This document shows, piece by piece, positions 8,086 through 29,727 of a stretch of 31,129 nt of DNA. Each line of letters starts with the position of its first letter. Within the stretch, counting starts at the first letter, position 1. The position numbers and the translations under genes are program-made. This stretch comes from Stellaceae bacterium. Lineage in GTDB: Bacteria; Pseudomonadota; Alphaproteobacteria; ATCC43930; CGMCC-115725. Below the pieces are notes generated by a model that was given only the letters and a program-made list of their open reading frames with translations, ran no database searches and was not told where the DNA came from. The DNA lies in NCBI GenBank assembly GCA_046706015.1, contig JBJKPV010000123.1, forward strand, positions 1-31,129, given 5' to 3'.

Positions 8086-8302
8086 CAGCTTTTACCTCAC
8101 ATGAAAAAAAGCAACGAGAGTCGCGCCACCGGTCGCGACCTCGTCGGTGACGATCCGCCTATAGAACGCGCGGCGAGACGAAGCGGGCTGTGATTATTAT
8201 GTGCCTCGCAAATCGCAACGCCGAAAACGCCGGCCGCGTGTCACGGATTGGTCATCGCGCGAAGGGGACATAAATTCGATATCGCGGCGTTGTTCCCCGC
8301 AT

Positions 8303-10677: not shown

Positions 10678-11439
10678 ATGTCTATGCCGGTCTATGCCGG
10701 AACAGCGCGGAACTATCGCTCTAGTTTCCGTAATACTTCCAACAGGACGCATGATTGGTGGCGCTTGCACGCGGCAGCCATCGACCGCAACTTCGTCCGT
10801 CAGCGCCCTGCCGGGCTGTTTCGTGCGCCCGCCGAGCAGGCAACGAAGCTGTTGTTCGATCTCATCCTCGCCGCTCTTCTCGTCATCGGGCTTTCGCCGG
10901 CATTGCTTTGTCTCGCCGCTCTCGTGCGCAAAGGCGGCGGCAAAGTCATCTTCGGCCACAAGCGCATCGGTGCCTATGGCCGCGTCTTCACCTGTTGGAA
11001 ATTCCGCACCATGGTGCCGAATGCGGACCAGGTCTTGGCCCGCGTCCTCGCCGGCGACGCAAATGCGCGCGCGGAATGGGAAAAGGATTTCAAGCTCAGG
11101 GACGATCCGCGGATCACACGCGTCGGACGCGTCTTGCGCACCACCAGCCTCGACGAGCTACCGCAGCTCTTCAATGTCTTGAAGGGCGAGATGAGTCTCG
11201 TCGGTCCGCGACCGATCGTGGCCGACGAAATCCGGCGCTATGGCGCGGCCTTTCATGACTATACGCGGTGCCGGCCGGGCATCACTGGCGCTTGGCAGGT
11301 GAGCGGCCGCAACGATATCGATTACGGCACGCGGGTAAGGCTCGATCAGGATTACGCGCGCCACTGGTCATTCCTGAGCGATTGCGCGATCCTCTTGCGC
11401 ACGGCTGTCACCGTGCTCAAACGCAGCGGTGCGTATTGA
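10678..11439 (+). CDS. Priming phosphoglycosyl transferase (ExoY/WbaP C-terminal-domain type, Bac_transf)
   Basis: SD AAGGAG at 10665. It carries KLLFDLI, FTCWKFRTM, DPRITRVGRVLRTTSLDELPQLFNVLKGEMSLVGPRP and RPGITGAWQVSGRN. Confidence 0.95.
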   Translation: MSMPVYAGTARNYRSSFRNTSNRTHDWWRLHAAAIDRNFVRQRPAGLFRAPAEQATKLLFDLILAALLVIGLSPALLCLAALVRKGGGKVIFGHKRIGAYGRVFTCWKFRTMVPNADQVLARVLAGDANARAEWEKDFKLRDDPRITRVGRVLRTTSLDELPQLFNVLKGEMSLVGPRPIVADEIRRYGAAFHDYTRCRPGITGAWQVSGRNDIDYGTRVRLDQDYARHWSFLSDCAILLRTAVTVLKRSGAY

Positions 11440-12260
11440 GCGCGACAACAGGGCACGCGCGCGTCGCCCTTGAAACGCGCGATTCGTCTGCGCATGCCAC
11501 GCCTGCCGATATTCCGGTGCCGGCGTCGGCGGCGCGTATCGCTGGCCTTCTCGTGGTACTCGCGGCGGCGGCAGCGCTCGGTGGCTGCGCCACGGCGAGC
11601 GGCGATCTGCCGCCGATTCCCATGATTCCTGTGCCGCAGGCCGGAACCTTGTCCGCGCTTCCGCCTTACAAGGTGCAGGTCGGCGACGTGCTGGACGTCA
11701 AGCTCTACCTCAATCCGGAGCTGAACGATCAGGTCACGGTTCGGCCCGACGGAATGTTCTCGACCTCGATCGCCCAGGACGTCCCGGCCTACAACCACAC
11801 CCCGGCGCAGATCGCGGCCGAATTGCGCCAGGACTATGCGAACACGCTGAAGAACCCGCATGTCAACGTGATCGTCCATTCCTTCGCGCCCAACAAGATC
11901 TATGTCGGCGGCGAGGTCAGGGACCCCGGCGAATACATCACGGTCGGGCCCAATCTCACCATCAGTCAGGCGCTGGCCCGCGCCGGCGGCGTCAAGCTCA
12001 GCGGCGATCGCGCGCGTATCTTCGTCATTCGCCGCGGTCCGCACGACAAGGCCGAAGCCTTCTCGGTCGACTACAAAGACATCATTTCCGGCCGCCATCC
12101 ACAGGACGACGTACGGCTCGCGCCCTATGACGTGGTCTATGTGCCGCGGACCGGCATTTACGAGGTGTGGACGTTCTGGAACCAGTTCGTCCAGCAATTC
12201 GTGCCGGTCAATTGGGGCTTCTCCTACAGCGTCAACCCATCGGTTACGACCGGCAAATGA
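11436..12260 (+). CDS. wza: Outer-membrane polysaccharide export lipoprotein (OPX, Wza family)
   Basis: Probable TTG start overlapping the upstream TGA, lipobox LGGC, Poly_export motif YKVQVGDVLDV...VRPDG, SLBB (IYVGGEV..PG) and a C-terminal amphipathic WNQFVQQFVP helix. Confidence 0.9.
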   Translation: MSATTGHARVALETRDSSAHATPADIPVPASAARIAGLLVVLAAAAALGGCATASGDLPPIPMIPVPQAGTLSALPPYKVQVGDVLDVKLYLNPELNDQVTVRPDGMFSTSIAQDVPAYNHTPAQIAAELRQDYANTLKNPHVNVIVHSFAPNKIYVGGEVRDPGEYITVGPNLTISQALARAGGVKLSGDRARIFVIRRGPHDKAEAFSVDYKDIISGRHPQDDVRLAPYDVVYVPRTGIYEVWTFWNQFVQQFVPVNWGFSYSVNPSVTTGK

Positions 12261-12290
12261 CGATATTGCCTCAGCCCATCGACACGACGC

Positions 12291-13793
12291 GTGAGTTCGG
12301 CCGCGAGAAAGGAGGAAATTTTGCCGTTTGACCTTCTCGCCGTATTGTTCCGCCACAAGACCGCGGCGCTATGCGTCTTCTCCGCCGTGGTCCTGGCGGG
12401 CATCGCCTATCTGCTGGTCGCGACGCCCAAATACGAATCGGTCGCCCAGCTGATCGTGCGCTTCGGCGATCGCTCTGTTCCCAATTTCCAGCAGGCGCCG
12501 CCGACCGAACTCACGCCGTCGGACCGGCGTGAGATCGTGACCGCGAACGCGGCGATTCTGAGCAGCCACGATCTGGCGCAGGCGACGATCGAATCCTTCG
12601 GTCTCGCCAAGGTCTATCCCGCTATTGCCGCCGATCCGCCGAACCACGGCACGCCCATGGACGCGGCGGTAAGGCGGTTCTCCGACAATCTCTCGGTCGA
12701 TGTCGGGACGCAGGATAATGTGCTCTCGGTCGCGTTCTTTCATCCCGATGCGTCGCTTGCGCCGAAGATCGTTCACAAATTGGTGTCGCTCTATATCGAG
12801 CGCGAGACCGCCGTCTATCAGAACCCGCAAGCCGCCTTCCTCGACAAGGAAGTGAAGGCTGCCAATAAGCGCCTGCTCGCGGCGCAAAGCGCGCTCGAGG
12901 CCTTCAAGGAAAAATGGCACATCACGAATTACGACCAGGAGGTCATGGACCTGCTGAAGCAGCGCGGCGACGTCGACACCAATCTTCGCGCCGCGGAAGC
13001 GAGTCTCGACCAGGCGCAGCATCGCAAGCAGGATCTCGAGCAGCTGATGCGCACGGTCCCCGAGAAGGTGCCGGAACCGGCGAGTGGCGAGAAATACCGC
13101 GCGCTCGACGACGCCGAGATCCGCCTCGCCAATCTCCGCTCGAAGCTCAATCAGATGCTGGTCACATACCGGGCGAACAGCCCCGCCATGGCCTCGCTCA
13201 AAGCCGGCGTCGCCACTGCGGAGGCCGACGTCAAAGCGCGTCGGGCGGAGCTGAGCCATCGCTCGCTCACCGATATAAATAAGGTCTATCAGACGCTCCA
13301 GACCGACTATCTCCGTACCGCCGCCGATGCGGAAAGCAACAGCCAGCCGGTCAAGGTGCTGAGCGGCCAGCTCAAGACGATCGACGATCGGCTCAACGTC
13401 CTGCAGCAGAATCGCGGCAACTTGGACGACCTCACGCGGCACGCGCAGATCGCCGAGGCCGCCTATCGCTCGCTCTCGTCGCAATACGAAGACGCGCGCG
13501 TCAAGGACAATCTCAACCAGCAGCGGATTTCGCCGGCCACAATCATCAGCCAGCCAACCCAGCCCTACAAGCCGGCACGGCCGCGCAAGCTCGTGACGCT
13601 CCTCGCCTGCATCTTTGCCGGCGGGATTCTGGCAATCGGCTGCGCGCTCGCACTCGAGGCACGCGACGATCGCTTCGTCACTGCGGAGCAGATCGTGTTC
13701 ATCCTCGATCTCCCCGTCCTTGCCAGCTTCGGAGAGCGACACCGCAGCCTGCCGCTGCCGCGCGCGCTTATCGCCCCGGGAGACAGCACGTGA
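12291..13793 (+). CDS. Polysaccharide copolymerase, Wzc/GumC/ExoP N-terminal (transmembrane/periplasmic) part without a kinase domain
   Basis: GTG start, N-terminal TM with PKYESVAQL, long coiled-coil region, Pro-rich QPYKPARPRK before the second TM, and a short tail without a Tyr cluster. Confidence 0.9.
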   Translation: MSSAARKEEILPFDLLAVLFRHKTAALCVFSAVVLAGIAYLLVATPKYESVAQLIVRFGDRSVPNFQQAPPTELTPSDRREIVTANAAILSSHDLAQATIESFGLAKVYPAIAADPPNHGTPMDAAVRRFSDNLSVDVGTQDNVLSVAFFHPDASLAPKIVHKLVSLYIERETAVYQNPQAAFLDKEVKAANKRLLAAQSALEAFKEKWHITNYDQEVMDLLKQRGDVDTNLRAAEASLDQAQHRKQDLEQLMRTVPEKVPEPASGEKYRALDDAEIRLANLRSKLNQMLVTYRANSPAMASLKAGVATAEADVKARRAELSHRSLTDINKVYQTLQTDYLRTAADAESNSQPVKVLSGQLKTIDDRLNVLQQNRGNLDDLTRHAQIAEAAYRSLSSQYEDARVKDNLNQQRISPATIISQPTQPYKPARPRKLVTLLACIFAGGILAIGCALALEARDDRFVTAEQIVFILDLPVLASFGERHRSLPLPRALIAPGDST

Positions 13794-15757
13794 GGAAAGG
13801 TAACCTCGCTTACGGCGATTTTTACGAGCGCGAGGCGACGCCGCGCGAGCAGGAGTTCCGCGAGATCGAGCTGAGCACGCCCGACGATCTGCCTTTGGTC
13901 GATCTGATCGAGCTCTATGCCGGCATCGAATACGCGCTGCCAAGCGACCAGGGCCTGGTCGTCCAGTTCGTCAGCGCCACATCGGGGTTCGGCAGCGAAC
14001 AGGTTGCGCTCGACATGGCCTGGGCGGGAGCCAGCGTGCTCGGCCGACGGATGCTGCTGCTCAATTGCAACAAGTCCCGGCAGCGCCTGCCGCCGCCGCG
14101 CGGCGCGCAACCCGCCGCGCAACCCGTGATCGAACGCCACGTGCCGGTGAACCACATCGTCAAGGTGTCGGGCCAGGTGCTCTTCCACGCGGAATGGCGA
14201 AGCTGGCATTCGAAATCGGGCGCGTTGGTCGGTGCCGATGTGATCGACGGCCACCTCGACGAACTGCGCGCGTTTTTCGACATGATCGTCATGATCGCGC
14301 CGCCGGCGGATGGTGACCCGCTGGCGATGATCATGGCGCGGCACGTCGACGGCAATGTGATCATCCTCGAAGCCGAGCAGACCCGCCGGTCCGCGGCGAT
14401 ACGTCTGCGCGAGATTCTCGCTCGAGCCGGCAGCCCGATCGTCGGTGCCGTGCTCAACAACCGGCGCAATCACCTGCCGCGCAGGCTTTCGCGGCTCCTC
14501 TATCGGCAGCGTGGTCCGGCGATGCATGTGATGGTCGCAAACAATATCTATCCGCCGATCGTCGCCGGCGGCGCGGAACTCATCGTCTCCTATCTCTGCG
14601 AAGGCCTTGCGCGGCGTGGGCATCGAGTCACGGTCGTCTCGACCTGCTCACCGGATATGGAGCCTTATCCAGCGGAGATCCGCAACGGGGTCGAGGTCAT
14701 TCGCTTCTTTCCGCCGAACGTCTATTGGTCGTTCACGCGCGATCGCAATCCGGGCGTCAAGAAATGGCTGTGGCACGCCCGCGACGCGTGGAATCGCCAA
14801 GCCGGGCTTCGCTTGCGGGAGATCCTCAACGCGGCGCGGCCGAGCGTGCTGCATTCGCATCTGATCGACGGCATGTCGGCCTCCGTCTGGGGCTACGCGC
14901 GGCGTGCGGGCGTGCGCGTCATCCATACCGCGCATGACTATCACCTGCTTTGCCCGCGCGCTTTCATGCTGACCTCGGACTGGAATCTGTGCGCTCAGCC
15001 GAGCCTTCCGTGCCGCGTCTATCGCAATTGGCATATCGGCACGACGCGGCATGTCGACCTCTTCGTCAGCCCGTCGCGATTTCTGCTCGAGATGCATGAG
15101 CGCGCCGGCTTGCGCGTCGCCAAGCGCGCGGTGGTGCCGAACGGCATTCCGCTGCCCGCGGCGCTCGATCAGGTCCGGCAGGCGCGCCCGCCGGATAGCC
15201 ATACACGGTTTCTCCTGCTTTCGCGTCTGACGGTCGAGAAGGGCGTGCTCGTCCTGTTGGACGCTGTCGCGCGGCTATCCCCCGATCTCGGTATCGAGGT
15301 CGTGATCGCGGGCAAGGGGCCCTTGGAAGACCGCGTACGCGCCGCCGCCGCGGCGGACCCGCGCATCACCTATCTCGGCTATGTCAACGGCAAGGCCAAA
15401 ATCGAGGCGCTGTCGCGGGCCGGCTACTTATTGCTGCCCTCGCTCTGGTACGAGAACGCGCCGGTGGCGATCGTCGAGGCTGCGGCTTATGGGCTTGGGC
15501 TCCTCGCAAGCCGCATCGGTGCCATTCCGGAGTTCATTGAAGAGAATCGGACCGGACTGCTGTGTCGGCCTGGCGATCCTGAGGCCTTGGCTGAAGCCAT
15601 GACGCGCGTCGCACTCGAGCCCCATGCCTTGCCGGATTTGGCCGCGCGCTCGGCGGCGGTCGCGCAACGCCACCGTGTCGAACACATGATTGATGCCTAT
15701 GAGGAACTCTACGTCGCCTCGCTCAGCCGCCAAGCGACCTTCGCCGGCGGAAGCTGA
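13790..15757 (+). CDS. Fusion of a degenerate CpsD/CapB (BY-kinase-like) P-loop domain (aa ~1-240) and a GT4 glycosyltransferase (from MHVMVANN at 14522)
   Basis: GTGA overlap with the copolymerase. The N-half has VQFVSATSGFGSE, MLLLNCN, FDMIVMIAPP, HVDGNVIILEAEQTRR and IVGAVLNNRR, matching BY-kinase topology. The C-half has YPPIVAGGAE, HTAHDY, SRLTVEKG and the E-x7-E motif ENAPVAIVE. Confidence 0.85.
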   Translation: MRKGNLAYGDFYEREATPREQEFREIELSTPDDLPLVDLIELYAGIEYALPSDQGLVVQFVSATSGFGSEQVALDMAWAGASVLGRRMLLLNCNKSRQRLPPPRGAQPAAQPVIERHVPVNHIVKVSGQVLFHAEWRSWHSKSGALVGADVIDGHLDELRAFFDMIVMIAPPADGDPLAMIMARHVDGNVIILEAEQTRRSAAIRLREILARAGSPIVGAVLNNRRNHLPRRLSRLLYRQRGPAMHVMVANNIYPPIVAGGAELIVSYLCEGLARRGHRVTVVSTCSPDMEPYPAEIRNGVEVIRFFPPNVYWSFTRDRNPGVKKWLWHARDAWNRQAGLRLREILNAARPSVLHSHLIDGMSASVWGYARRAGVRVIHTAHDYHLLCPRAFMLTSDWNLCAQPSLPCRVYRNWHIGTTRHVDLFVSPSRFLLEMHERAGLRVAKRAVVPNGIPLPAALDQVRQARPPDSHTRFLLLSRLTVEKGVLVLLDAVARLSPDLGIEVVIAGKGPLEDRVRAAAAADPRITYLGYVNGKAKIEALSRAGYLLLPSLWYENAPVAIVEAAAYGLGLLASRIGAIPEFIEENRTGLLCRPGDPEALAEAMTRVALEPHALPDLAARSAAVAQRHRVEHMIDAYEELYVASLSRQATFAGGS

Positions 15758-15767
15758 CCGGGCGCGC

Positions 15768-17708
15768 GTGCGGGTCGCTCTCGCTGCCTTTCTCTTATGC
15801 CTGCTGGCCTTGGCGGCGCCTGTCTATGCCGAGTCGCTCCCGTCCGATGCCGGGATCATCAACGTTCGCGATTACGGCGCGCGCGGCGACGGAAGGCACG
15901 ACGATACCAAGGCGCTCTTGAACGCCATCGCGGCGAGTGGCGGCGATACCGGCCGCGCCTTTTGGCAAGATCGCATCGTTTATCTTCCCAACGGCACCTA
16001 TCTCGTCTCCGCGCCTCTGGTGAAGCGCTATGCCGGCGGGCGGTTCGGCTCGGGCATGATCCTGGTCGGCCAGTCGCGGAACGGCACCGTCATTCGCCTC
16101 GAAGATCACGCACCGGGTTTTGACGATCAGCGCCATCCGCGAGCGGTCGTCTTCACCACCTCGAAGCTTCTCGACGGCACGCCGACCAGCGGCGGCAAGA
16201 ATTATCCGGCGCTCGGCGAAGGCAACGACGCCTATATGAACTCGGTCGAGGATCTGACCATCGATGTCGGCAAGAACAATCCCGGCGCGATCGGCATCGA
16301 CTATCTCGCCAACAATATTGGGGCCGTGCGCGACGTTACGTTGAAGGCGCCGACTGGCAGCGGCGCCATCGGCCTTTCGATCCAACGCAAATGGCCGGGG
16401 CCGGCGCTGATCGAGAATCTCCTCGTCGAAGGCTTTGCGACGGGCATCGCGGTGGCGCAAACGGAATATGGGCTGACCTTCGACCATATCCGGCTGCGCG
16501 GCCAGCATGGCCCGGCGCTACGCAACGACCAGAACGTTCTTTCCATGCACGATCTCGAAATCACCGATCCGGCACCGGCCATCGTCAATAGCGGCGCCAA
16601 AGGCTTCATCGCGATCGATGGCGGATCGATCGGGCTGACCACCGGCGCACCCAAGCTTGCGAGCGCTGTCGCCAATGCCGGCTTCGTTGTGACCCGCGGC
16701 CTCGCCCTCGCGCGCGCCGGCCAGGAGGACGTGCAAGGTGAAAAAGCAACGATGCTGAATGGCATTCTCGCGGCGGGCGGCAAATGGAAGACGGTAGCCT
16801 GGCCGGCCTGGCTGCCGCGACTTCGCGACGCCCCCGCGGATCCGGCGATCGCGCCCAAGAACTGGGCGAACGCGGCGCATTTCGGCGCCGTGCCGAACCC
16901 GACGCATGATTCGGCGGAGGGGTTGCGGCGGGCTTTTGCCTCCGGTGCTTCCGTGGTCTACCTGCCGCACGGAACTTATGCGATCAGCCGCGCGATCGAG
17001 ATACCGCCGGGCGTGCGCCGCATCGTCGGCATGAATTCGACGATCAAGATCTTGCTGCCGCGACGGCCCGATTTTGCGCGCGACAAGGGCATGTTGCGTG
17101 TTGAGAGCAACGGCCCGCCGCTATCGATCGAGAACCTGGCGCTCGACAACACCAATCTCGGCCACCAGCTCGGAATCGAGGTGGCAGGGCCGCGCACGGT
17201 CACGATCCGCGATGTCGTTGCGGCCGGGGTCACGCTGCTCGACCGTAAACAGGCGGGCGGCCCGGTTTTCCTCGAGGATGTCTGCTGCGGCGCGATCGAG
17301 CTGGACGGTCCCGCCTCGGTGATCGCGCGGCAGCTCGACACCGAGGGCGGCGGCGTCCGCATCCTTGATCGTGGCAGCCCGCTCTCGATCCTGGGGCTCA
17401 AGACCGAAGGCATCGCGACGATTCTCGGCAATCGCGACGGCGCGCATGCCGATGTCTGGGGCGGCCTCGTCTATATGGTCCACAATGACGGCGGCACGCG
17501 CGTTCCGGCATTTCGCAACGCGGATGCATGGCTGCTCGCAGCCTTCGCCGAGGAATCGCTGCGCGCGGCGAGCCATTACAACGTCTATCTCGCGGGCCAG
17601 ACTCCGCAGGGCGAAGCAGTATTGACGCCCGATCGTTTTCCCACGCGCGGCTTCGGGCACTTCGTCCCGGATCTGCGCGCGACGCCGGCGGGTCCTCAGC
17701 CTCAGTAA
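15768..17708 (+). CDS. Secreted right-handed beta-helix glycan-active protein (Pectate_lyase_3 / GH55-like, two repeats)
   Basis: Signal peptide VRVALAAFLLCLLALAAPVYA from a GTG start. INVRDYGARGDGRHDDT...VYLPNGTYLVS recurs as HFGAVPNPTHDS...VYLPHGTYAIS. Confidence 0.8.
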   Translation: MRVALAAFLLCLLALAAPVYAESLPSDAGIINVRDYGARGDGRHDDTKALLNAIAASGGDTGRAFWQDRIVYLPNGTYLVSAPLVKRYAGGRFGSGMILVGQSRNGTVIRLEDHAPGFDDQRHPRAVVFTTSKLLDGTPTSGGKNYPALGEGNDAYMNSVEDLTIDVGKNNPGAIGIDYLANNIGAVRDVTLKAPTGSGAIGLSIQRKWPGPALIENLLVEGFATGIAVAQTEYGLTFDHIRLRGQHGPALRNDQNVLSMHDLEITDPAPAIVNSGAKGFIAIDGGSIGLTTGAPKLASAVANAGFVVTRGLALARAGQEDVQGEKATMLNGILAAGGKWKTVAWPAWLPRLRDAPADPAIAPKNWANAAHFGAVPNPTHDSAEGLRRAFASGASVVYLPHGTYAISRAIEIPPGVRRIVGMNSTIKILLPRRPDFARDKGMLRVESNGPPLSIENLALDNTNLGHQLGIEVAGPRTVTIRDVVAAGVTLLDRKQAGGPVFLEDVCCGAIELDGPASVIARQLDTEGGGVRILDRGSPLSILGLKTEGIATILGNRDGAHADVWGGLVYMVHNDGGTRVPAFRNADAWLLAAFAEESLRAASHYNVYLAGQTPQGEAVLTPDRFPTRGFGHFVPDLRATPAGPQPQ

Positions 17709-18067
17709 GGCCGTTGCAGGATGTAAGGATCGATTACCGGCTTCGGCGGCGGCGCGGGCACCGCGGCGATGCAGGCGCCTTTCACGCGCTTGCTGGCGGC
17801 GTCGCAGCTCGCGCGGTCGGCATAAAGGCAGGAGACCGCGTTGCCCGACTGAACGACGCAGAACGGTGCGCCGCCGGCGGGCGTGAGGAACTCGGTTGGA
17901 TTGGCCTCGCAGCGCCCGCCCTGCCGGGCCGCCTCGCGCTGACAGGAGGCCGGGTCGACATAGGTGCATTGTGGCGTCATGCCGGTGACATTGACGCAAA
18001 ACGGCGCTGCATAAGCGGGACCCGCCGCCAGCAGCGCATAGGAGGCGAGGAGAAGAGCGATTTTCAT
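17702..18067 (-). CDS. Secreted 121 aa protein with two tandem 4-Cys modules (DUF3551-like)
   Basis: Signal peptide MKIALLLASYALLAAGPAYA, then PFC-x9-C-x7-C-x10-C twice and a Pro-rich tail. ATGA overlap with the flippase stop. Confidence 0.8.
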   Translation of the reverse strand: MKIALLLASYALLAAGPAYAAPFCVNVTGMTPQCTYVDPASCQREAARQGGRCEANPTEFLTPAGGAPFCVVQSGNAVSCLYADRASCDAASKRVKGACIAAVPAPPPKPVIDPYILQRPY

Positions 18068-19416: not shown

Positions 19417-19911
19417 CGTGCTCGACGCGCATGCAGCATCGCTCTCGCTTCTTTGTTCGGAAGAGCGCAAGACGAGTCGGGATGAAGGTCGCGACAATCT
19501 TCGCGTCGCACGAAGCACGAAATCGCGTGCCGTCAATGAGTTTCGAATGTCCGTCACTAGACGCATTTCCGAACTGATTGACAACGTCAAAGCGCGGGCC
19601 GCGTTCCTCGAAACGCGCGCGAAAGCGACGGATCACAGCGATGTCACACGGTCGACTGCGTGCTTGCCAGTTTCGCGAGCACTCGGCCGCGTTCGCGCAG
19701 TCACGCCGATATCACACCGACACTGCAAGGAATTGCGCGTTAATACGATGCCATCGATCGACCGTCACGCAGGACGACACAATCGCGCAAATGACGAGAA
19801 TGGGCGAGACCGTGTTCGAGAGATTCGTTGTCGCGGCGGGGTCGCGCCAAATCCGGCGCAGCGGATCCGGGTCCGGCGCGCCCCGGCCGACGCGCCATTA
19901 GGCAAGCCGCA

Positions 19912-21540: not shown

Positions 21541-21925
21541 CGCGACATCGCGCGATATTTGGATCATCTACGACGGCGAATGTCCGTTCTGCCGCTCTTA
21601 CGTTCTCTTCTACCGTTTGCGTGATCAAGGCAGGCGCGTCCATCTCCTCGATGCGCGCGCGGCCGATCCGGTGGTCGAGGAGATCCGACGCCGCAAGCTC
21701 GATCTCAATCGCGGCATGGTCGTGAAGATCGACGATCGGCTCTATTTCGGATCGGAGGCGATCAATCTCTTGGGGATATTGGGAAGCACCGCGAGTCTCT
21801 TCAATCGCATCAACCATATCCTCTTCGGCCATCCGCGCTGCGCCCGCCTGCTTTATCCGATTCTTGTCCGCGGCCGTCTTCTGACGTTACGGCTGCTCGG
21901 CCGACCATTGATCGACAGTTTCTGA
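21527..21925 (+). CDS. DCC1-like thiol-disulfide oxidoreductase (DUF393)
   Basis: N-terminal IIYDGECPFC is the DxxCxxC signature. Also YFGSEAINLL and C-terminal LYP..VRGR. It overlaps the upstream gene by 14 nt. Confidence 0.9.
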   Translation: MSAADATSRDIWIIYDGECPFCRSYVLFYRLRDQGRRVHLLDARAADPVVEEIRRRKLDLNRGMVVKIDDRLYFGSEAINLLGILGSTASLFNRINHILFGHPRCARLLYPILVRGRLLTLRLLGRPLIDSF

Positions 21926-21937
21926 ACGCCGAGGAGA

Positions 21938-23044
21938 ATGGCAATGCCCGACACGCTTGGCTTCGAGCTCCGCGAGGATGCGGGCTGCTGGACGGTTTCC
22001 CGCGCGGCGGCCAATCGTCCGGTCGTGGCGACGATCGTCATCCCCACCTATCGCGCCGCCGCGACGCTGAACCGCGCGCTGTTGAGCGCGTTGAGTCAGA
22101 CAATGACCGATATCGAAGTGATCGTGGTCGACGACGCGTCGACCGACGCGTCTTGGGATCTGGCGCTCGAGGCGATGCGCCACGAGCCGCGGCTGCATGG
22201 AATCAGGAACAAGCGCAATTGCGGCAAGCCGGTCGGAATGAATCGGGCGATCGCGCTCGCCCGTGGCCGCTGGCTCGCGGTCTTGGATGCGGACGATTGG
22301 TACCGGCCCGAGCGGCTGGAGATGCTGATCGCGTTGGGCGAGAGCACGCATGTCGATCTCGTCGCCGATAACCAGCTCTTCTACGACGCGGGCGCGTCTC
22401 GCGTCGTGGGATCGGCTTGGCCGGAGGCAACGGGCGCGTGGCCACTGAGCTTCGACGACTTCCTTGCAGGGTCCGATGCCTATGAGAGCTTTAATCTCGG
22501 CATGTTGAAGCCCGTCATCCGCACCGATTTCCTGCGTCGTACCGGGCTCGGCTACCAGGAGCGCGCGCGGCACGGCCAGGATTTCTTCCACCTCCTGGAA
22601 TTCTTCCTGCAGGGCGGAAAGGCCGTCGTCTCCGACCGGGCGCTCTACCATTACACGCTGCCTTTCGGCGCGGTCTCGCGGCGTTGGTCGCATGCCGAGC
22701 GCCGGCGATACGACTTTCAGACTGCTTGCGACATCAACCGGCAGTATCTCGTCGCGGCGCACGCCACGCTCACCTCCGCACAAGCGGCGCAACTGAAACG
22801 TCGCAATGATAAGCTCACATCACTCGAAATGTTTTTCCAGGCGCGCGAGCGGTTTGGGCAAGGCGATGCGACCGGCGCCGCGGCGAGGATCCTGCGTCGT
22901 CCGGCTACCTTGGCTTATGCTTGGCGGCGGCTGCGCCGCCGTTGGGCGCCCCAGAGCGCATCGCGCCCGATCGAGCGCATCGCCGCCCGCGCTCGCCGGC
23001 ACGCGCGCCAAGCCACAAGCGAGGTTTCCGCTCGCGTATCATGA
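21938..23044 (+). CDS. GT2 glycosyltransferase (ExoO/ExoU-like)
   Basis: IVIPTYRAAATL, VIVVDDASTD, GKPVGMNRAI, WLAVLDADDW and GQDFF motifs. Confidence 0.93.
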   Translation: MAMPDTLGFELREDAGCWTVSRAAANRPVVATIVIPTYRAAATLNRALLSALSQTMTDIEVIVVDDASTDASWDLALEAMRHEPRLHGIRNKRNCGKPVGMNRAIALARGRWLAVLDADDWYRPERLEMLIALGESTHVDLVADNQLFYDAGASRVVGSAWPEATGAWPLSFDDFLAGSDAYESFNLGMLKPVIRTDFLRRTGLGYQERARHGQDFFHLLEFFLQGGKAVVSDRALYHYTLPFGAVSRRWSHAERRRYDFQTACDINRQYLVAAHATLTSAQAAQLKRRNDKLTSLEMFFQARERFGQGDATGAAARILRRPATLAYAWRRLRRRWAPQSASRPIERIAARARRHARQATSEVSARVS

Positions 23045-25371
23045 AGAGCGACCAGAATTTCGCCGACAACAATTTCACCGTCTTGCGCCTGCTGCTGGCG
23101 CTGATGGTGGTGCTCGGCCATTTCCAGCTTCTCGCCGGCGTTCGATACCCACCTTGGCCCTTCAACTACGCGGCTATGGCCGTTGACTGCTTCTTCGTCG
23201 CGAGCGGCTATCTCGTCACCAGCAGCTTCGATCGCGATTCCGGCCTGTCGCGCTTTTATATCCGGCGCTTCTTTCGCATCTATCCGCTCTACATCGCGGT
23301 CGTGACCGCGCAGACCTTCGTCCTCGGCGCGCTCGTTTCGGGCGGCGCGCTCGCCAATCTTCACTCGCTCTTGCGCTATTTCGTCGTCAACGCCGCTTTC
23401 GCGAATTTCCTCCAATACGATGTCGGCTCGCATGTCCTGCGCGGTCTCGTCAATCCCAGCCTCAATCCAAGCCTGTGGACCCTCAAGATCGAGTTCGCCT
23501 TCTATCTCATTCTGCCCGCGCTGTGGTGGGCGGTGCGCCGTTACGGCACGTCTGTCCTCGTCGCGATCTTCGTCCTCTCGGCCCTTTATTACGGCGTTCT
23601 CAACCATGCCGGAGAGTACCGGCTCGCCAAGCAACTCCCAGGTCAGCTTCAGTTCTTCGTGCTGGGAATGGCGGTCTATAAGTTTCGCGACCGCCTCGCA
23701 ATCCCGCCTTGGCTCGGCCTCGTCGCGACCTTGGCCCTTGCCGCATTCTGCACGAGCTTGCTCGCAAGTCGCCCGCCGGTGATCTATCCGTTCACGGTCG
23801 GCAGCCTCGTCGCCGTCGCCGCGCTGGCCGCGCCGCGCCTCAGGCTCACGACCGACATCTCCTATGGCGTCTATCTGCTGCATGGGCCGATCATTCAATT
23901 GTCCCTGCTGTTCGGCCTCTACCAAGCCGGCAGGCTGGGGCTCGGCGCGACCGTCGCCGCAGTCTTGGTCTTGGCGGCGATCGTCGAGCGCGTGATCGAG
24001 CGGCCGGGCATCGCGGCCGGTCGCCGGCTGTCGCGGAAATTTGGGCCGCCCGCGGCGCCGCGTGTCACACCCGCAGCTTCGACCGCGACGGCGCGCGCGT
24101 TGGAGCCTGGATTCTCTTCCGCCGCCGCGGCGCCCGGCCTCACCGTCGTCGTGCTCAATGATTTCTGTCACGTGCAAGGTGGTGCGAGCAAGGTTGCAGT
24201 CGACGAGTCGCTCAGCCTGACCCGCTCGGGAACGAACGTGATTTTTCTCGGCGCGGTCGGCCCCGTCTGTGCGGAGCTTCGCCGTTCGGCTGTGGCGGTC
24301 GAGTGCCTTGGTCAAAGCGAGCTGCTCGATTTCGCGCGGCATCCCGGTGTTGCGCTTCAAGCCTTGTGGAATTTCAAGGCGGCGCGCCGCGCCCGCGCGA
24401 TCCTCCAAGCGCTGCCGCGCGACAACACGATTGTCCATGTCCACGGCTATACCACGGCGCTGAGCACCAGCCCGGTGCGAATGGCGCGTCGGCTGGGGTT
24501 TCCGGTCGTGTGCACGCTCCATGATTTCTTCGCGGCCTGCCCCAACGGCGCGTTCTTCGATTATCTGGCCGAGAAACCATGCCTGCGGCGGCCGCTGTCC
24601 CGCCAATGCGTCGCCGCGCGTTGCGACAAGCGTCGCTATGCGCATAAGCTTTTCCGCGTCCTGCGCAGCTGGCTTCAGCGCCACGCCGGTCGTTTCCCCG
24701 ACGCGATCGAGGACTACATCGCGCTCTCGAACCAATCGGGCGCGCTGTTGGCGCCTTACCTGCCGCGACAAGCGCGGCTCCATCATCTCCCGAACCTCGC
24801 CGATGTCGTGCCGCAGCCGTCGGTCGCGGCCGCGAAGAGCCGCGCGATCCTTTACATCGGCCGACTCGATATTGAAAAAGGCGTCCGGCTCCTCGCCGAG
24901 GTGAGTCATCGCTTGGGCATTGCAATCGTCTTCGTCGGCGACGGGCCGCTGCGCCCGGAGCTTGAAGCGATCCCAGGCGTATCCGTAACCGGGTGGCTGG
25001 GCCGCGACGAAGTCCGGCGCCACCTCGATCAGGCGCGCTGTCTCGTCTTTCCAAGCCTCTGGTACGAGACCTACGGTCTCACCGTCAGCGAGGCGGCCGC
25101 GCGCGGCATTCCCGCGATCGTCAGCGACATCTCCGCGGCGGCGGAGCGCGTCCGCGACGGCGTGACCGGCTGGCGTTTTCGCAGCGGCGATGCCGGCGAT
25201 CTCGCGCGCTGCTTGAGGCTGATCGAGGACGACGCCGTGGTGGCGGCGGCCGGCGACGCGGCCTATCGCGCCTTCTGGAGCGACGCCGAAACGCCCGACG
25301 TGCACGCGAAAAAGCTCATGGGTATCTACGACATCACCCTGCGCAGAAGGACCGCGGCGTGCGCGGCGTGA
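23041..25371 (+). CDS. Fusion of an acyltransferase-3 (OafA-type) membrane domain and a GT4 glycosyltransferase
   Basis: ATGA overlap. AT3 motifs RLLLALMVVLGH, DCFFVASGY, RRFFRIYP, SLWTLKIEFAFY and ISYGVYLLH. An Ala/Pro linker (~24030-24140) leads to a GT4 with QGGASKV, TLHDFF, GRLDIEKG and E-x7-E ETYGLTVSE. Confidence 0.9.
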   Translation: MKSDQNFADNNFTVLRLLLALMVVLGHFQLLAGVRYPPWPFNYAAMAVDCFFVASGYLVTSSFDRDSGLSRFYIRRFFRIYPLYIAVVTAQTFVLGALVSGGALANLHSLLRYFVVNAAFANFLQYDVGSHVLRGLVNPSLNPSLWTLKIEFAFYLILPALWWAVRRYGTSVLVAIFVLSALYYGVLNHAGEYRLAKQLPGQLQFFVLGMAVYKFRDRLAIPPWLGLVATLALAAFCTSLLASRPPVIYPFTVGSLVAVAALAAPRLRLTTDISYGVYLLHGPIIQLSLLFGLYQAGRLGLGATVAAVLVLAAIVERVIERPGIAAGRRLSRKFGPPAAPRVTPAASTATARALEPGFSSAAAAPGLTVVVLNDFCHVQGGASKVAVDESLSLTRSGTNVIFLGAVGPVCAELRRSAVAVECLGQSELLDFARHPGVALQALWNFKAARRARAILQALPRDNTIVHVHGYTTALSTSPVRMARRLGFPVVCTLHDFFAACPNGAFFDYLAEKPCLRRPLSRQCVAARCDKRRYAHKLFRVLRSWLQRHAGRFPDAIEDYIALSNQSGALLAPYLPRQARLHHLPNLADVVPQPSVAAAKSRAILYIGRLDIEKGVRLLAEVSHRLGIAIVFVGDGPLRPELEAIPGVSVTGWLGRDEVRRHLDQARCLVFPSLWYETYGLTVSEAAARGIPAIVSDISAAAERVRDGVTGWRFRSGDAGDLARCLRLIEDDAVVAAAGDAAYRAFWSDAETPDVHAKKLMGIYDITLRRRTAACAA

Positions 25372-25439
25372 ACTGTCGTTTCATCTTCGGTCCGGCCGCG
25401 CAGTCGGCATCGACCCCATTGCAGAAAGAGCCATAACGC

Positions 25440-26414
25440 ATGTTCGGTTATCTGTCGGTCGCACAATTATCGGCCGCGATCCGCGCCAAGCTGACCATCA
25501 TCCCCGACGACATCGATCTCGTTGTCGGCATTCCGCGCAGCGGCATGATCCCGGCCTATCTGATCGGCCTGTTCCTGAACCGCCTCGTCATCGATCTCGA
25601 AACCTTTCTCAATGACGGGCCGGCGCCGGGTCATGGCGCGCGGCGCATCGGCGCGGAGGTCGCGAGCCCACTCGATGCCAGGCACGTGCTTCTCGTCGAC
25701 GACAGCCTGGCCTCTGGGGCATCGATGAATGCCTGCATCGGCCGGGTCGCAGCGTCGCGTTTCGCCGGCCGGCTGACGAGCTGCGCCGTCGTCGTTGAGC
25801 CCGCGATGGCGGAGCGGGTCGATCTCCATTTCGTGCAGATGCCGCAGCCGCGCATCTTCGAATGGAATGCCTTCCACCATCCTTATATCGAGATGTCATG
25901 CTTCGATCTCGACGGTCTTCTTTGCGCCGATCCGACGCCGCAGGAGAACGATGACGGGCCGCGCTATCGCGCGTTTCTTCGCGCCACGCCGCCGCTTTTC
26001 AGGTCGACCCGTCGCATCGGGCATATCGTCTCCGCGCGGCTCGAGAAATATCGGCCCGAGACCGAAGCCTGGCTCGCCGCTCATGGCATCAGCTATGGCG
26101 CCCTCCATCTCATCGACCTGCCTAGCCGTGCCGAGCGCATGCGCCTGGGGGCGCATCACCGGCACAAGGCACGGGTGTTCCGCGAGAGCGGCAGCGTTCT
26201 CTTCTACGAGAGCGATCCGGACCAGGCGCAAGAGATCGCGCGCCTTGCGGGCAAGCCCGTCTTGTGCGTTGCCGACATGGATCTGCGCTTACCCGATGGC
26301 TTCCAGGTCAAAGCGCATATCAAGAACGCGAAATGGCATTTGCGCCGCCCCTTGGGTCGGTTCAAGGGGCAATTGCGCGAGAAGATGCGCGGCCTGGTGC
26401 GCTGCGTGCCGTGA
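25440..26414 (+). CDS. Fusion of a type I phosphoribosyltransferase (N-terminal) and a HAD-superfamily phosphatase (C-terminal)
   Basis: DLVVGIPRSG and PRPP loop VLLVDDSLASGASM. Then HAD motif I FDLDGLL, motif II VSAR, a motif III Lys (HKARV) and acidic motif IV FYESD. Confidence 0.85.
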   Translation: MFGYLSVAQLSAAIRAKLTIIPDDIDLVVGIPRSGMIPAYLIGLFLNRLVIDLETFLNDGPAPGHGARRIGAEVASPLDARHVLLVDDSLASGASMNACIGRVAASRFAGRLTSCAVVVEPAMAERVDLHFVQMPQPRIFEWNAFHHPYIEMSCFDLDGLLCADPTPQENDDGPRYRAFLRATPPLFRSTRRIGHIVSARLEKYRPETEAWLAAHGISYGALHLIDLPSRAERMRLGAHHRHKARVFRESGSVLFYESDPDQAQEIARLAGKPVLCVADMDLRLPDGFQVKAHIKNAKWHLRRPLGRFKGQLREKMRGLVRCVP

Positions 26415-27037
26415 CCCTCGTCGATGCCTTGCGCACGGCCAAACGCACCGCTTTGCGCAACGCAAAGCGTGTCGGAAAGCCGTTCGGCTACAGTGAGGTC
26501 AATTGGCTGCGCGTGCGGCAGATAGAGCGCTGGCAGGAATTTCTCGGCCGGCAGGCCCCGCTCGGCGACGGGCTGGAAATCTCGCCGGGCTGGAACGAGA
26601 TGTGGCGCCGCCTTCCTTGGCGCGTCTATGAGACGGTCGATTATCCCGATTTCGACATTTGCCGCGAGCGGCTCGATCGGCGCTTCCATATCGTCATCGC
26701 CGATCAAGTGCTGGAGCACGTCGCCGACCCGCGCGGCGCGGTCGCCAATATACGGGCGATGCTGCAGCCCGGCGGCTACGCGTTAATCGCGGCACCGTTT
26801 CTCTTTCGCGTCCACGCGAGGCCTCACGACTACTATCGCTGGACCGAGCTGGGCCTGAAGACGCTCTGTCGCGACGCCGGCTTCGACACCGCCGCGATCG
26901 CAGTCGAATCCTGGGGCAACAAGGCCTGCGTCAAGGCGCATCTCGGCGGTCCGGTGCGCGATTACGGCTTCGGCCGCGATTTGAGCAACGATCCGGAATA
27001 TCCGGTCATGGTCTGGGCATTTGCGCGGAACCTATGA
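26411..27037 (+). CDS. Class I SAM-dependent methyltransferase-like protein (Methyltransf_11 type)
   Basis: GTGA overlap with the PRT-HAD gene. FHIVIADQVLEHVADP...LQPGGY and PHDYYRWT. Motif I is degenerate (LEISPG). Confidence 0.75.
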   Translation: MTLVDALRTAKRTALRNAKRVGKPFGYSEVNWLRVRQIERWQEFLGRQAPLGDGLEISPGWNEMWRRLPWRVYETVDYPDFDICRERLDRRFHIVIADQVLEHVADPRGAVANIRAMLQPGGYALIAAPFLFRVHARPHDYYRWTELGLKTLCRDAGFDTAAIAVESWGNKACVKAHLGGPVRDYGFGRDLSNDPEYPVMVWAFARNL

Positions 27038-27053
27038 TATCCCGGCTGGCTCC

Positions 27054-27776
27054 TCAGCCCATGGCGGCTTCGGCGCGCGTGTCTTGCAGGATCTCGGCGA
27101 CCGCCTCGGGGCCGGCGGCGATGCGAAGATGAGGCAGGTCGCGTTCGAGCGTCGCCTGGTCGCGTGCCGTGCCGAACCAGACGACGGTCTCGCATAAGCT
27201 CATGAGCGGCAGATCGTCGCGATGATCGGTGAAGACGATCCGCGGCCGCTCGTGCCAGCCGAGGCCGGCAAGGAATTGCATCACGGCATCCCGCTTCTGC
27301 GCGCCGGCATTGCTCGGCTCGCTCGGCGCGCGCTGTCGCTTTGTCGCCAGCACATGTGCGAATCCCAAGGCGCGGCCCAAGCCCTCGGCATAATCCGCGA
27401 CCGCTGCCGTCGCGAGCACGGTATCGATCGACCCGGTCGCGATCGCCGCGAGCGCCGGCGCCATTTCCGGGCGCACCGCGCGCAAGAGCTGGCCGATCAA
27501 TAATTGTTCGGCGGCACCGCGATCGCCCGCCGTTGCCGCCTGCCAACGGTGCTGCAGGCGTCGCTTGAAATCCTCATGGCCGATCAAGCCGGTTTTGCGC
27601 AGGGCCAAGAGAAGAAGCGTCGCCGCGACGGCGCGCGTTCGCTGCGCGGGGCGGAGCTGCGCGAACGGCGCGCGCAGCATGAAGCGGACCCAGCAGGGAA
27701 AGCTGTTGACGGCGAGTATGGTGCCGTCGAGGTCGAAGATCAGGACGGGGTCGCGTTCAGCGCGTCGAGCGACCAT
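27054..27776 (-). CDS. HAD-superfamily (subfamily IB-like) phosphatase
   Basis: Motif I LIFDLDGTI, motif II VLATAA, Lys in GAQKR and motif IV FTDHRDDLPL. The start is 27776 or 27788, overlapping the PRTase gene end. Confidence 0.85.
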   Translation of the reverse strand: MVARRAERDPVLIFDLDGTILAVNSFPCWVRFMLRAPFAQLRPAQRTRAVAATLLLLALRKTGLIGHEDFKRRLQHRWQAATAGDRGAAEQLLIGQLLRAVRPEMAPALAAIATGSIDTVLATAAVADYAEGLGRALGFAHVLATKRQRAPSEPSNAGAQKRDAVMQFLAGLGWHERPRIVFTDHRDDLPLMSLCETVVWFGTARDQATLERDLPHLRIAAGPEAVAEILQDTRAEAAMG

Positions 27777-28360
27777 GGGAAGCGGCATAATTGACCTTGA
27801 TAGAGCGCATAATCCGGCTGAATGAGTGGCTCTTCCGTCGTCACGGTGATGACCGCGGAGCGCAGCAGGGTCGCGTGCGGCAGGCGCGCGCGGACGGTCT
27901 CGCAAACCTGCAGCAACGTGGCGCCGCTATCGACCGCGTCATCGACGACGAGCGCCAGGCTTTCGCCCGCGGACGCTCTCGCCCAAGCATCGAGCGTCGC
28001 GAGCTCGGCCTCGTCGAAGCGATGCGGAACGGCAGGCCGCGCCGGCGGCTTGCGCGTCAGCATCGCGTGCTCTATCACGCGGAGGCGATCGACGACCGGA
28101 CGCGGCAGGTGCCCGATCACTTCGCTCACCACGGCGGCGCGAGCCTTGTGCGCGGTCGACGGCCGGCGGCAGGTCATGGCGATGACCGGCAGGTTCGATC
28201 TGTCTTCCCGCGCCATCGCCTCGGCGACGATCAGCCCGCCCGTCCTGATGCCAATGAGAAGATCGGGACGTCGGTCGCGCGCGACCAGCTCCATGAGCGC
28301 GCCACAAGCGTCGGCGAAGCCGCGCTTATCGAAGCTGATCACGCCCCTCGGACGCTTCAT
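27740..28360 (-). CDS. Stand-alone type I phosphoribosyltransferase
   Basis: ATGA overlap with wzy. PDLLIGIRTGG, PRPP loop LVVDDAVDSGATL, AVITVT and C-terminal PDYALY...CRFPWS. Confidence 0.88.
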   Translation of the reverse strand: MKRPRGVISFDKRGFADACGALMELVARDRRPDLLIGIRTGGLIVAEAMAREDRSNLPVIAMTCRRPSTAHKARAAVVSEVIGHLPRPVVDRLRVIEHAMLTRKPPARPAVPHRFDEAELATLDAWARASAGESLALVVDDAVDSGATLLQVCETVRARLPHATLLRSAVITVTTEEPLIQPDYALYQGQLCRFPWSLDALNATPS

Positions 28361-29727
28361 CGCAAGGCCGCCATGCGGCTTGCACGCAACGGCATGTCGA
28401 TCCGCCCGCGCGTCTCGCAGACCAAGGCGCCCAGCGCGGCGCCAAGAAAGAGGGCTGCGGCTTGGTCTTCGAGCACGGAGAGCACCGTCCCATAGCCGAA
28501 GACGAAGGCGATAATCGCGACCGCGGTTGCAGCGCGCTCCTGCGATCCGGAAATCGGCCGGAACACGAGCCAGAGGATCGCGGTCAGGTAGAAGAGCGCG
28601 AAAACGCCGAAATAGGCGTAGAGGAGGATGAAGATATTGTCGGCCGGGTTGAAGCTGTCGATCGCATAAAGCCGCTGCGGTCCGCCGATGCCACCGAGGC
28701 CGACGCCGAAGAACAGCATTTGATGCCGCGTGATCCAGCGCCAGGCCTCGGGCCAAGTATAATCCATGCGCAGATAGAGCGATGCTGTGCTGAAGACGCC
28801 GCTGCCGTGCTCCATGTGTAGATCCATGATCAAAAACGGCAAACCGACGGCGGCGATCATGAAACCGGCGCAGCTAAGCCGAAGCCAGCGCAGGCGGTGC
28901 GCGGCCGGGAACAGCAAGATGGCGGCGATGGGCAGAAAGGCGACGAGCGCGCCCTTTTGCGTCGTGAGCAGAACGGCACCGACGGATACGAGCAGCAGCG
29001 CGGCGCGCCACAACCAACGCTGGATGCGCGCGAGCAGCACGATTGCAAGCGGCGGGACGAGGGCGGCGACCGAGATCGAACTGCGCGTGAAGCCGGCGAC
29101 GCGGCGGGCGAATTCGTTTTGAACGTCCCAATTCTTCGACACGTCGACATTGAGGTCGCCGACCACGGTCTTGATCCCGGTCCAGGGAAAGGTCAGCACG
29201 AATTTGTCGAGCCCGATGCCGACCATCGTGATCAGCCAGACCGCCAACAGGAAGGCGAAGACGCGGTCGCCGGGGCGCAACAGCAACGAGGCGACGAAAT
29301 AGCCGAAGAGCAGGTTGACCAGGACCTTCACGCCGTAGGCGACGCCGGCGACACTGCCGATCGTCCCCATCAAGACGAGTCCGTGAAAGGCGATCAGTGC
29401 CCCGAATAGCGCAAAAGCCGGGTGAAGGCGCAGGCGCATCGCCTGCGCCGCCACGAGCAGGGCGAGCGGGACGAGGATCAGCGCGTCGCGCAGGAGGATG
29501 AAATTGTCTTTTCCCGATAAATAAAGCCCATAGCGAATCGGTGCCTCGAGCGCGTAGATCCCGAGATAGACGAGGCTGGACAAGAGGAAGACCTTGCCCA
29601 TCCGTGCGCTGTCGATGTTGCTGAGACCGTCGAGCGCCGCACTGACGGGCAGCGGCCGGCCTTGCACGGCACCACTACCCATGCGCCGCGGCCGCGCGCG
29701 ATCGTTCGCGATCTCGGTTTGAGCCAT
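28357..29727 (-). CDS. Wzy polymerase / O-antigen-ligase-like membrane protein (Wzy_C)
   Basis: About 12 TM segments, RVAGFTRSS loop, and a late periplasmic loop followed by FGVGLGGIG and ADNIFILLYAYFGV. It sits in a Wzx-containing locus that has no other polymerase. Confidence 0.75.
   Translation of the reverse strand: MAQTEIANDRARPRRMGSGAVQGRPLPVSAALDGLSNIDSARMGKVFLLSSLVYLGIYALEAPIRYGLYLSGKDNFILLRDALILVPLALLVAAQAMRLRLHPAFALFGALIAFHGLVLMGTIGSVAGVAYGVKVLVNLLFGYFVASLLLRPGDRVFAFLLAVWLITMVGIGLDKFVLTFPWTGIKTVVGDLNVDVSKNWDVQNEFARRVAGFTRSSISVAALVPPLAIVLLARIQRWLWRAALLLVSVGAVLLTTQKGALVAFLPIAAILLFPAAHRLRWLRLSCAGFMIAAVGLPFLIMDLHMEHGSGVFSTASLYLRMDYTWPEAWRWITRHQMLFFGVGLGGIGGPQRLYAIDSFNPADNIFILLYAYFGVFALFYLTAILWLVFRPISGSQERAATAVAIIAFVFGYGTVLSVLEDQAAALFLGAALGALVCETRGRIDMPLRASRMAALR

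Follow-up and report, generated by a model that had tools for sequence, protein, structure and literature searches.

Positions 10678–29727 of a 31,129-nucleotide contig (JBJKPV010000123.1, assembly GCA_046706015.1; this whole stretch is hereafter the window) from a Stellaceae bacterium are read here, with a probability of roughly 0.6, as one variant of a conserved alphaproteobacterial Wzx/Wzy exopolysaccharide (EPS) or capsule locus that includes a proposed ribosylating pathway. The cluster is ordinary overall, with counterparts in many Alphaproteobacteria of soils, and its unusual part consists of two phosphoribosyltransferase (PRT) and HAD phosphatase pairs, which probably add ribose from phosphoribosyl pyrophosphate (PRPP). 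Both the export parts and the logic of ribosylation are already known; the enzymes proposed to ribosylate fall into two uncharacterised families that have the canonical PRT fold, and no enzymes of this proposed sort have previously been characterised from a pathway of this type. The window is a complete 31-kb contig of a metagenome-assembled genome (MAG; 60% complete, 65% GC) whose nearest genome relative is another Stellaceae MAG (L005/G006).

One coding frame per position was picked by third-position GC content (GC3), and the genes of the region were inventoried by Pfam and NCBIfam domain calls. All of the components listed by a first-pass annotation of this DNA were recovered at the positions it had given, in GC3-supported frames. 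Its assignment to a Wzx/Wzy-type EPS or capsule locus is borne out by domain matches for the initiating phosphoglycosyltransferase (PGT), the MOP-family Wzx flippase, the PCP-2 copolymerase and the Wza-type outer-membrane polysaccharide export protein (OPX), and the domain scan agrees with it in detecting no nucleotide-sugar synthesis domain between 10678 and 29727. Its proposal of a new kind of system gives way to that of one variant of a conserved, widespread locus family.

Two PRT and HAD pairs

The first pair is a single 324-residue fusion protein (25440–26414, + strand), in which the model places a type I PRT domain (PF00156) at residues 1–145 and a capless HAD domain at residues 147–281. 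The second pair is split over two genes on the – strand: a stand-alone type I PRT of 206 residues (PRT2; 27740–28360; PF00156, 32.5 bits) and its partner, a HAD-IB family phosphatase (HAD2; 27054–27788; PF12710, E = 7e-18). Across 15 aligned orthologues of the PRT-HAD protein, every HAD motif is invariant, and so is the classical PRPP loop, whose two acidic residues are adjacent. The motifs of the second pair are as well conserved, with an invariant VDDAxDxGxT loop in PRT2 and invariant DLDGT and TDHxDD motifs in HAD2; both PRTs keep the canonical loop with its acidic pair, and both HADs keep the Asp-x-Asp of motif I. PRT2, HAD2 and the adjacent Wzy-like gene always form one unit across the carriers of the locus. 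A recent paralogous origin of PRT2/HAD2 from PRT-HAD was considered and rejected, the similarity being at the level of motifs only.

An AlphaFold model of PRT-HAD (predicted local distance difference test score, pLDDT, of 76) was identified by fold search as a type I PRT joined to a capless HAD most like the 3′-phosphatase of T4 PNKP, an enzyme that acts on the end of a DNA polymer. Searches of the PDB returned only nucleobase PRTs and generic HADs, and the PRT2 profile matched only purine PRTs; the structures nearest to the PRTs are XGPRT and HGXPRT, and also PyrR/PurR-type regulators. Judging by motifs and genomic context, PRT-HAD is a candidate PRPP-dependent glycan (phospho)ribosyltransferase, and the PRPP-based ribose decoration suggested by the first-pass annotation remains the best reading of the PRT and HAD proteins. 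A broader proposal is put forward tentatively, at somewhat below even odds: that both PRT/HAD systems represent new families of glycan (phospho)ribosyltransferases that use PRPP, have the canonical type I PRT fold, evolved independently and operate in Wzx/Wzy pathways.

Distribution of the PRT-HAD family

A profile search of 1.84 billion representatives recovered the PRT-HAD architecture in at least 1,418 clusters (50% identity) at E ≤ 1e-30, spanning several phyla. Many members are part of proteins of 600–2,276 residues that also bear GT2, GT4 or GT8 glycosyltransferase (GT), WbsX or TPR domains. The module may be N-terminal, in the middle or C-terminal in proteins of up to 2,276 residues, and an ATP-grasp (TupA-like) domain is also among its partners; two proteins (P0243, 628 residues; P0244, 640 residues) match the profile twice and may contain tandem PRT-HAD modules. 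In public records members go by no more specific name than ‘phosphoribosyltransferase family protein’ or ‘uncharacterized HAD superfamily protein’.

All inspected contexts of the family are polysaccharide loci. A Steroidobacter locus contains, with PRT-HAD, genes for a PGT, Wza, a polysaccharide copolymerase (PCP), a ParA-like kinase, GT4, GH16, GT8, GT2, SGNH and AT3 proteins and Wzx. Other members were found in a glycan locus on a Stutzerimonas-type marine contig, in a locus with several GTs on a contig that looks Bacteroidota-like from a Por_Secre_tail neighbour, and in a polysaccharide locus of Azospirillum oleiclasticum. In Mesorhizobium sp. B4-1-4 a member (L058:9654–10676) directly follows an exoT-like wzx in an exo-like locus, and six of the eight Mesorhizobium species sampled have the family. 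It is also common in Mesorhizobium at large and in Rhizobium etli/phaseoli.

The EPS of Mesorhizobium loti R7A carries a terminal β-D-riburonic acid, the biosynthetic origin of which is not assigned in reviews (PMC8227245, PMC6144797). The PRT-HAD cluster listings name many Mesorhizobium strains, with neither R7A nor MAFF303099 among them, and PRT-HAD as the source of the M. loti riburonic acid is a lead, not evidence. The unnamed M. loti genes mlr5265/mlr5266 have EPS phenotypes.

Comparison with known ribosylation and EPS systems

Ribofuranose enters bacterial glycans as ribose-5-phosphate transferred out of PRPP, after which its 5-phosphate is cleaved off by a HAD phosphatase (PMC11127046, PMC11294581, PMC10299916, PMC12096443). 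This two-step route has been demonstrated for Klebsiella O4/O7 and Salmonella T1 (PMC11127046, PMC11294581, PMC11231755), for the Haemophilus influenzae b capsule (PMC10299916) and for Campylobacter jejuni HS:2 (PMC12096443). In the published enzymes the HAD domain precedes a large divergent transferase of 330–440 residues. Because this logic has already been published, PRPP-then-HAD ribofuranosylation is not itself new.

The gPRT + PRP enzymes (Klebsiella O4/O7 ORF5/ORF7, the Thermobacillus composti enzyme and Salmonella STM0726) probably share the two-step logic with the pairs described here. They also occur within polysaccharide loci, stand-alone or fused to other GT modules, and in both cases a HAD with intact motifs is paired with a transferase. 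In their prototypes, however, a HAD (PRP) with a helical cap is N-terminal to a large divergent gPRT, and the characterised examples are all ABC-transporter-dependent. In the Wzx/Wzy-dependent locus of the window, the PRT is a small PF00156 domain of the canonical type I, its acidic pair adjacent, and stands before the HAD, as the first domain of the fusion and as the upstream gene of the split pair, and the HAD is either fused (and capless) or a separate gene (HAD-IB); no homology to the gPRT + PRP enzymes was detected in PDB sequence, profile and two fold searches. Bcs3 of H. influenzae b (CriT/CrpP) and Cj1432 of C. jejuni resemble the PRT-HAD family in combining a PRT-like core, which in them uses PRPP, with a HAD, and in being fusable with GT domains. 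CriT has 330–440 residues, three helical bundles and an acidic pair split over two loops (PMC10299916), whereas the present domains, of 145–206 residues, have the classical VDD-x-x-x-G-x-[ST] loop and occur in the reverse order.

In periplasmic pentofuranose addition three components cooperate (PPPRS, a flippase and a GT-C enzyme). No UbiA-type protein was found among the open reading frames (ORFs) scanned, and no GT-C protein in the fold lists; both PRTs here are soluble and of type I, and the only candidate membrane protein is the HTTM-like protein described below.

The succinoglycan-type exo loci of rhizobia (Sinorhizobium, Mesorhizobium) likewise specify secreted glycanases and an alphaproteobacterial acidic EPS of the Wzx/Wzy type that is decorated by acyl, pyruvyl or other groups, and the Mesorhizobium exo-like locus shares the PRT-HAD family with the window. 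They differ from the present locus in gene content and order: here an ExoP-type fused kinase and GH16 glycanases are missing, and a β-helix enzyme, an AT3::GT4 fusion, a DUF3551-like protein and the split PRT2/HAD2 pair are present.

The locus family in related genomes

All proteins of the window were compared with the fetched loci by tblastn. The same genes in the same order, with 50–90% amino acid identity, were found in the nearest Stellaceae MAG (L005/G006), in a metagenome contig (L030, ~90% identity), in two Rhodospirillales contigs (L037, L039), in three complete genomes (G240, G085, G270) and in the type strain Telmatospirillum siberiense (L057). The shared core runs from PGT, Wza, PCP and the kinase-like protein through GT4, the β-helix protein, the DUF3551-like protein and Wzx to AT3::GT4, and then to HAD, PRT and Wzy on the opposite strand. 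The first-pass annotation had proposed checking whether the accessory genes travel with the wzx/wzy core, and in related genomes the two were indeed found together.

Within this frame the decoration genes vary. A block of HTTM-like, DCC and GT2 genes is present in the window, G006, L030, L037, L039 and G240; G085 and G270 are without all three, and T. siberiense is without the HTTM-like and DCC genes and has a GT2 at that position. PRT-HAD and a methyltransferase are found together in the window and G006, and a pyruvyltransferase takes their place in L037, L039 and T. siberiense, an alternation that resembles that of serotype-like decoration modules. G006 is the only one of 60 species representatives around the window’s genome to have PRT-HAD and the HTTM-like gene, and PRT2 was found in 4 of 300 evenly drawn Alphaproteobacteria; the locus family is therefore patchy in its distribution, as is usual for polysaccharide loci. 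Niveispirillum was noted as a likely carrier, with homologues of AT3::GT4 and GT4 only.

The BY pseudokinase and its run-on into GT4

Downstream of the PCP-2 gene lies a 237-residue protein like the bacterial tyrosine (BY) kinases (13790–14500, +), with weak matches to CapB, VpsO, BceF and Wzc. Aligned to VpsO and CapB, its Walker motifs are degenerate (A, GFGSE for GEGKT; A′, LLLNCN for LLIDCD; B, VMIAPP for VIDTPP), and they are similarly degenerate in four orthologues, including those of three other genomes. An orthologue ends without Tyr, and there is no Tyr-rich tail. The protein is, from these motifs, a conserved BY pseudokinase. Pairs of a BY pseudokinase with a PCP-2 protein have been published as EcpK/EpsV of the Myxococcus xanthus EPS and HfsB/HfsA of the Caulobacter holdfast (PMC12004946). 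By motifs and gene context the present pair is analogous: a kinase-less PCP in a Wzx/Wzy locus adjoins a stand-alone BY-kinase-like gene whose product has no Tyr cluster and whose Walker motifs are degenerate.

Unlike in those systems, the pseudokinase ORF of this one MAG runs into the next gene, a GT4 glycosyltransferase of 411 residues from its own ATG (14522–15757, +; Pfam GT4 families), giving a single 655-residue ORF with GT4 as its C-terminal 411 residues. The fusion is seen in the window because position 14503 is T: codon 238 (14501–14503) is TAT, as against a TAG stop in relatives, where it closes the pseudokinase gene 18 nucleotides upstream of the GT4 start. Five related sequences have G at 14503, including L030 (95% identical) and contigs of three independent metagenome runs (wetland, soil and paddy). 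The two genes are called separately in L030, L037, L039 and L057, and nearly all of the 120 GT4 homologues listed are stand-alone proteins of 401–422 residues. Given the stand-alone homologues and the TAG in relatives, the fusion is, at the sequence level, a stop-codon loss private to this MAG or a consensus error, and the pseudokinase-tethered GT of the first-pass annotation reduces to this single change.

The HTTM-like/DCC pair

A 542-residue polytopic membrane protein with a C-terminal soluble domain (19912–21540, +) is followed, with an overlap of 14 nucleotides, by a gene for a DCC1-like thiol-disulfide oxidoreductase with an intact CxxC motif (DGECPFC; 21527–21925, +; PF04134, E = 6e-12). 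The Pfam HTTM model matches neither the 542-residue protein nor any of 36 homologues, PF05090 has no match in the window’s own genome, and the language-model neighbours of the protein are suggestive at most. Its structural model is confident (pLDDT 89.6; predicted template-modelling score 0.89), and against the AlphaFold database it matches clusters named ‘HTTM domain-containing protein’ (E = 9e-18 and 6e-14) and vitamin-K carboxylase (E = 3e-4); a DUF393 protein (A0A7I8CC30) is also among these fold matches. Against the PDB, human GGCX heads the list with a probability of 0.99 and a low TM-score. The model thus supports an HTTM, or vitamin-K carboxylase-like, fold. A GT-C identity, which would imply periplasmic three-component ribosylation, was considered and rejected on the same fold lists, which show HTTM and GGCX entries and no GT-C.

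The first-pass annotation had seen here a built-in redox module. Its HTTM and DCC calls stand, the one by fold and the other by PF04134, but the pair is optional in the locus family, being absent from the G085, G270 and T. siberiense loci. The secreted 8-Cys protein (the DUF3551-like protein below) occurs without the pair, and a redox module dedicated to it is unsupported. Both the pair and the DUF3551-like protein are accessory. In a Bradyrhizobium contig (L038:8121–12089) an HTTM-like/DCC pair lies divergently beside wzx in an unrelated polysaccharide locus, which suggests that the pair is a mobile wzx-associated module. Two gammaproteobacterial, Steroidobacteraceae-type MAG contigs, of which one bears the label Povalibacter, have a DCC1-like gene ~2.5 kb upstream of PRT-HAD (L006:7458–7853; L007:5435–5737), and no HTTM-like homologue was found near it by profile in the fetched regions.

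Other genes of the locus and its surroundings

The locus begins with the priming enzyme, a small PGT of the WbaP C-terminal type (Bac_transf; 10678–11439, +; PF02397, E = 1e-61), which has orthologues in L030, L037, L039, G085 and G270; TIGR03022 and TIGR03025 match it through their C-terminal parts only and below cut-off. A link to the PEP-CTERM/exosortase system, suggested by sub-threshold TIGR0300x matches, was considered and set aside, no exosortase having been found in the incomplete genome. The Wza-like outer-membrane polysaccharide export protein (11436–12260, +; Poly_export and SLBB domains) has an approximate start, likely a TTG, taken from a 274-residue gene call in L030. It is followed by the PCP-2 copolymerase (12291–13793, +; Wzz and GNVR domains), which has no kinase domain, two terminal transmembrane segments, and a TIGR03007 match (E = 1e-36) below cut-off. 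The Wzx flippase (18064–19416, –; start approximate) matches PF13440 (Polysacc_synt_3, E = 2e-11), as its orthologues do, and has ~12 hydrophobic segments. The Wzy-like polymerase (28357–29727, –) is a polytopic protein of 456 residues with ~10–12 transmembrane segments. It has no Pfam match and was putatively assigned by its position and its language-model neighbours, which are Wzy_C/O-antigen ligase clusters (0.99); its T. siberiense orthologue has a weak match to PF04932 (Wzy_C).

The remaining transferases are a GT2 glycosyltransferase (21938–23044, +; PF00535, E = 3e-32), an AT3 acyltransferase fused to a GT4 in one ORF (23041–25371, +; PF01757, Acyl_transf_3, and GT4 families) and an S-adenosylmethionine-dependent methyltransferase (26411–27037, +; Methyltransf_23/11/12). 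The AT3::GT4 architecture is kept in ~85 homologous clusters of 740–795 residues, and gene calls in L037, L039 and L057 agree with it; this fusion is genuine and conserved. The methyltransferase start is approximate, and its L005 orthologue aligns from residue 49. Two secreted proteins with signal peptides complete the locus. A right-handed β-helix protein (15768–17708, +; PF12708, E = 2e-28), kept in all locus variants, probably works on the polymer as a glycanase, lyase or epimerase. Between its gene and wzx, again in all locus variants, lies the gene for a small 8-Cys protein with two Cys4 modules (17702–18067, –), termed DUF3551-like from a PF12071 score of 22 bits (cut-off 26.5).

Directly upstream of the locus are the periplasmic glucan genes opgG (–) and opgH (+) (6517–10438), which have the same position in L030 but not in L039. 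A tRNA gene (6217–6288, –; Rfam, 67.6 bits) lies between TAXI/DctM TRAP transporter genes, also outside the locus, and opgG; it was the only RNA that Rfam found upstream of the locus, with no riboswitch, and a promoter and terminator consensus scan performed no better than on shuffled sequences. A partial WecA/MraY-family (PF00953) polyprenyl-phosphate sugar-phosphate transferase at the contig edge (2–820, –), beyond the locus, could be another priming enzyme. At the other end, a 193-residue ORF (30173–30754, +) has good GC3, one predicted transmembrane segment and no family match, and is not part of the relatives’ locus.

Alternative readings

A number of points count against a ribosylating Wzx/Wzy pathway. 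The PF00156 scores of 31–32 bits are just above threshold, and the PRTs and HADs showed no sequence or reported fold similarity to solved ribofuranosyltransferases in the PDB searches (single-sequence, profile and two fold searches, which did not include a pairwise comparison with the T. composti enzyme or Bcs3). The source genome is a MAG of 60% completeness, and the Wzy assignment is weakly based, on language-model neighbours, position and a weak orthologue match. A type I PRT might ribosylate some small molecule rather than a glycan. The product of the pairs would then be a soluble riboside or another small-molecule precursor, or the pairs would sense PRPP as regulators, without decorating the glycan directly, in line with the nucleobase PRTs and PyrR/PurR-type regulators that are their closest structures and with the lack of similarity to solved glycan ribofuranosyltransferases. 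We consider this unlikely, however, given the invariant catalytic PRPP loop and HAD motifs, the many proteins in which the module is joined covalently to GT2, GT4, GT8 and WbsX domains, its place within glycan loci of several unrelated lineages, and a capless HAD that most resembles a phosphatase with a polymer substrate. Alternatively, the PRTs may act on the glycan but leave a residue other than plain ribofuranose, which might stay as ribose-5-phosphate or undergo further conversion, such as oxidation to riburonic acid or epimerisation. The Mesorhizobium PRT-HAD gene that follows the exoT-like wzx lies in an exo-like locus which also encodes a UDP-glucose dehydrogenase-type enzyme, M. loti R7A (absent from the PRT-HAD cluster listings) has riburonic acid in its EPS (PMC8227245, PMC6144797), and epimerisation of lipid-linked ribofuranose is known from other systems (PMC11127046). 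The domain calls of the window’s locus include no oxidase or epimerase, however, and the intact catalytic motifs of the HADs argue for removal of the 5-phosphate; we regard a modified residue as improbable here.

The remaining alternative concerns the locus as a whole, namely that it represents a categorically new EPS system, defined by a pseudokinase tethered to a GT and by an obligatory built-in redox module. The single ORF formed by the kinase-like domain and GT4 in the window and the translational coupling of the HTTM-like and DCC genes at the head of the GT operon would fit such a system. The comparison of relatives has already largely refuted it, and we regard it as very improbable: the fusion comes down to one TAG-to-TAT change that is found neither in L030, nor in the three metagenome populations, nor among the ~120 listed GT4 homologues; versions of the locus exist without the HTTM-like/DCC pair; the priming, export and polymerisation parts are all standard; and pseudokinase/PCP-2 pairs have been published (PMC12004946).

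Proposed pathway and significance

From the observed gene identities, folds, motifs, conservation and context, we infer each chemical step of the following pathway. The small PGT would prime undecaprenyl phosphate. Housekeeping nucleotide sugars would then be used by the stand-alone GT4, the GT2 and the GT4 part of the AT3::GT4 fusion to lengthen the lipid-linked repeat unit; the pathway would have about four Leloir transferase steps, and the composition that the first-pass annotation gave for the unit is hypothetical. The PRTs would add ribosyl groups from PRPP to the glycan, and their partner HAD phosphatases would take off the 5-phosphate to leave β-ribofuranose or a derived residue; the AT3 domain would O-acylate and the methyltransferase O-methylate the unit. 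Two PRPP-derived ribosyl additions, together with acylation and methylation, are probable. Wzx would then flip the repeat unit and Wzy polymerise it. Export of the polymer would fall to Wza and the kinase-less PCP-2 together with the BY pseudokinase, a scaffold that would act independently of phosphorylation, and the secreted β-helix enzyme may trim or modify the product.

The PRT-HAD family is the part of the locus worth an experiment, and with at least one cultured carrier directly confirmed (T. siberiense), the hypothesis is directly testable. Within the locus family, decoration also comes in a small range of natural variants: ribosyl and methyl versus pyruvyl, with or without HTTM-like/DCC. 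Ribofuranose in bacterial glycans was explained only in 2022–2025, by one enzyme family in ABC-transporter-dependent pathways. If the proposal is true, the ribosylation mechanism would extend to the Wzx/Wzy exopolysaccharides of soil and plant-associated bacteria, and a simple sequence marker would allow ribose-containing polymers to be predicted from genomes. PRT-HAD would then be a widespread and so far unrecognised source of ribofuranose-derived residues, which could include the M. loti riburonic acid, and may explain the ribose-derived residues in rhizobial EPS that are read by legume receptors.

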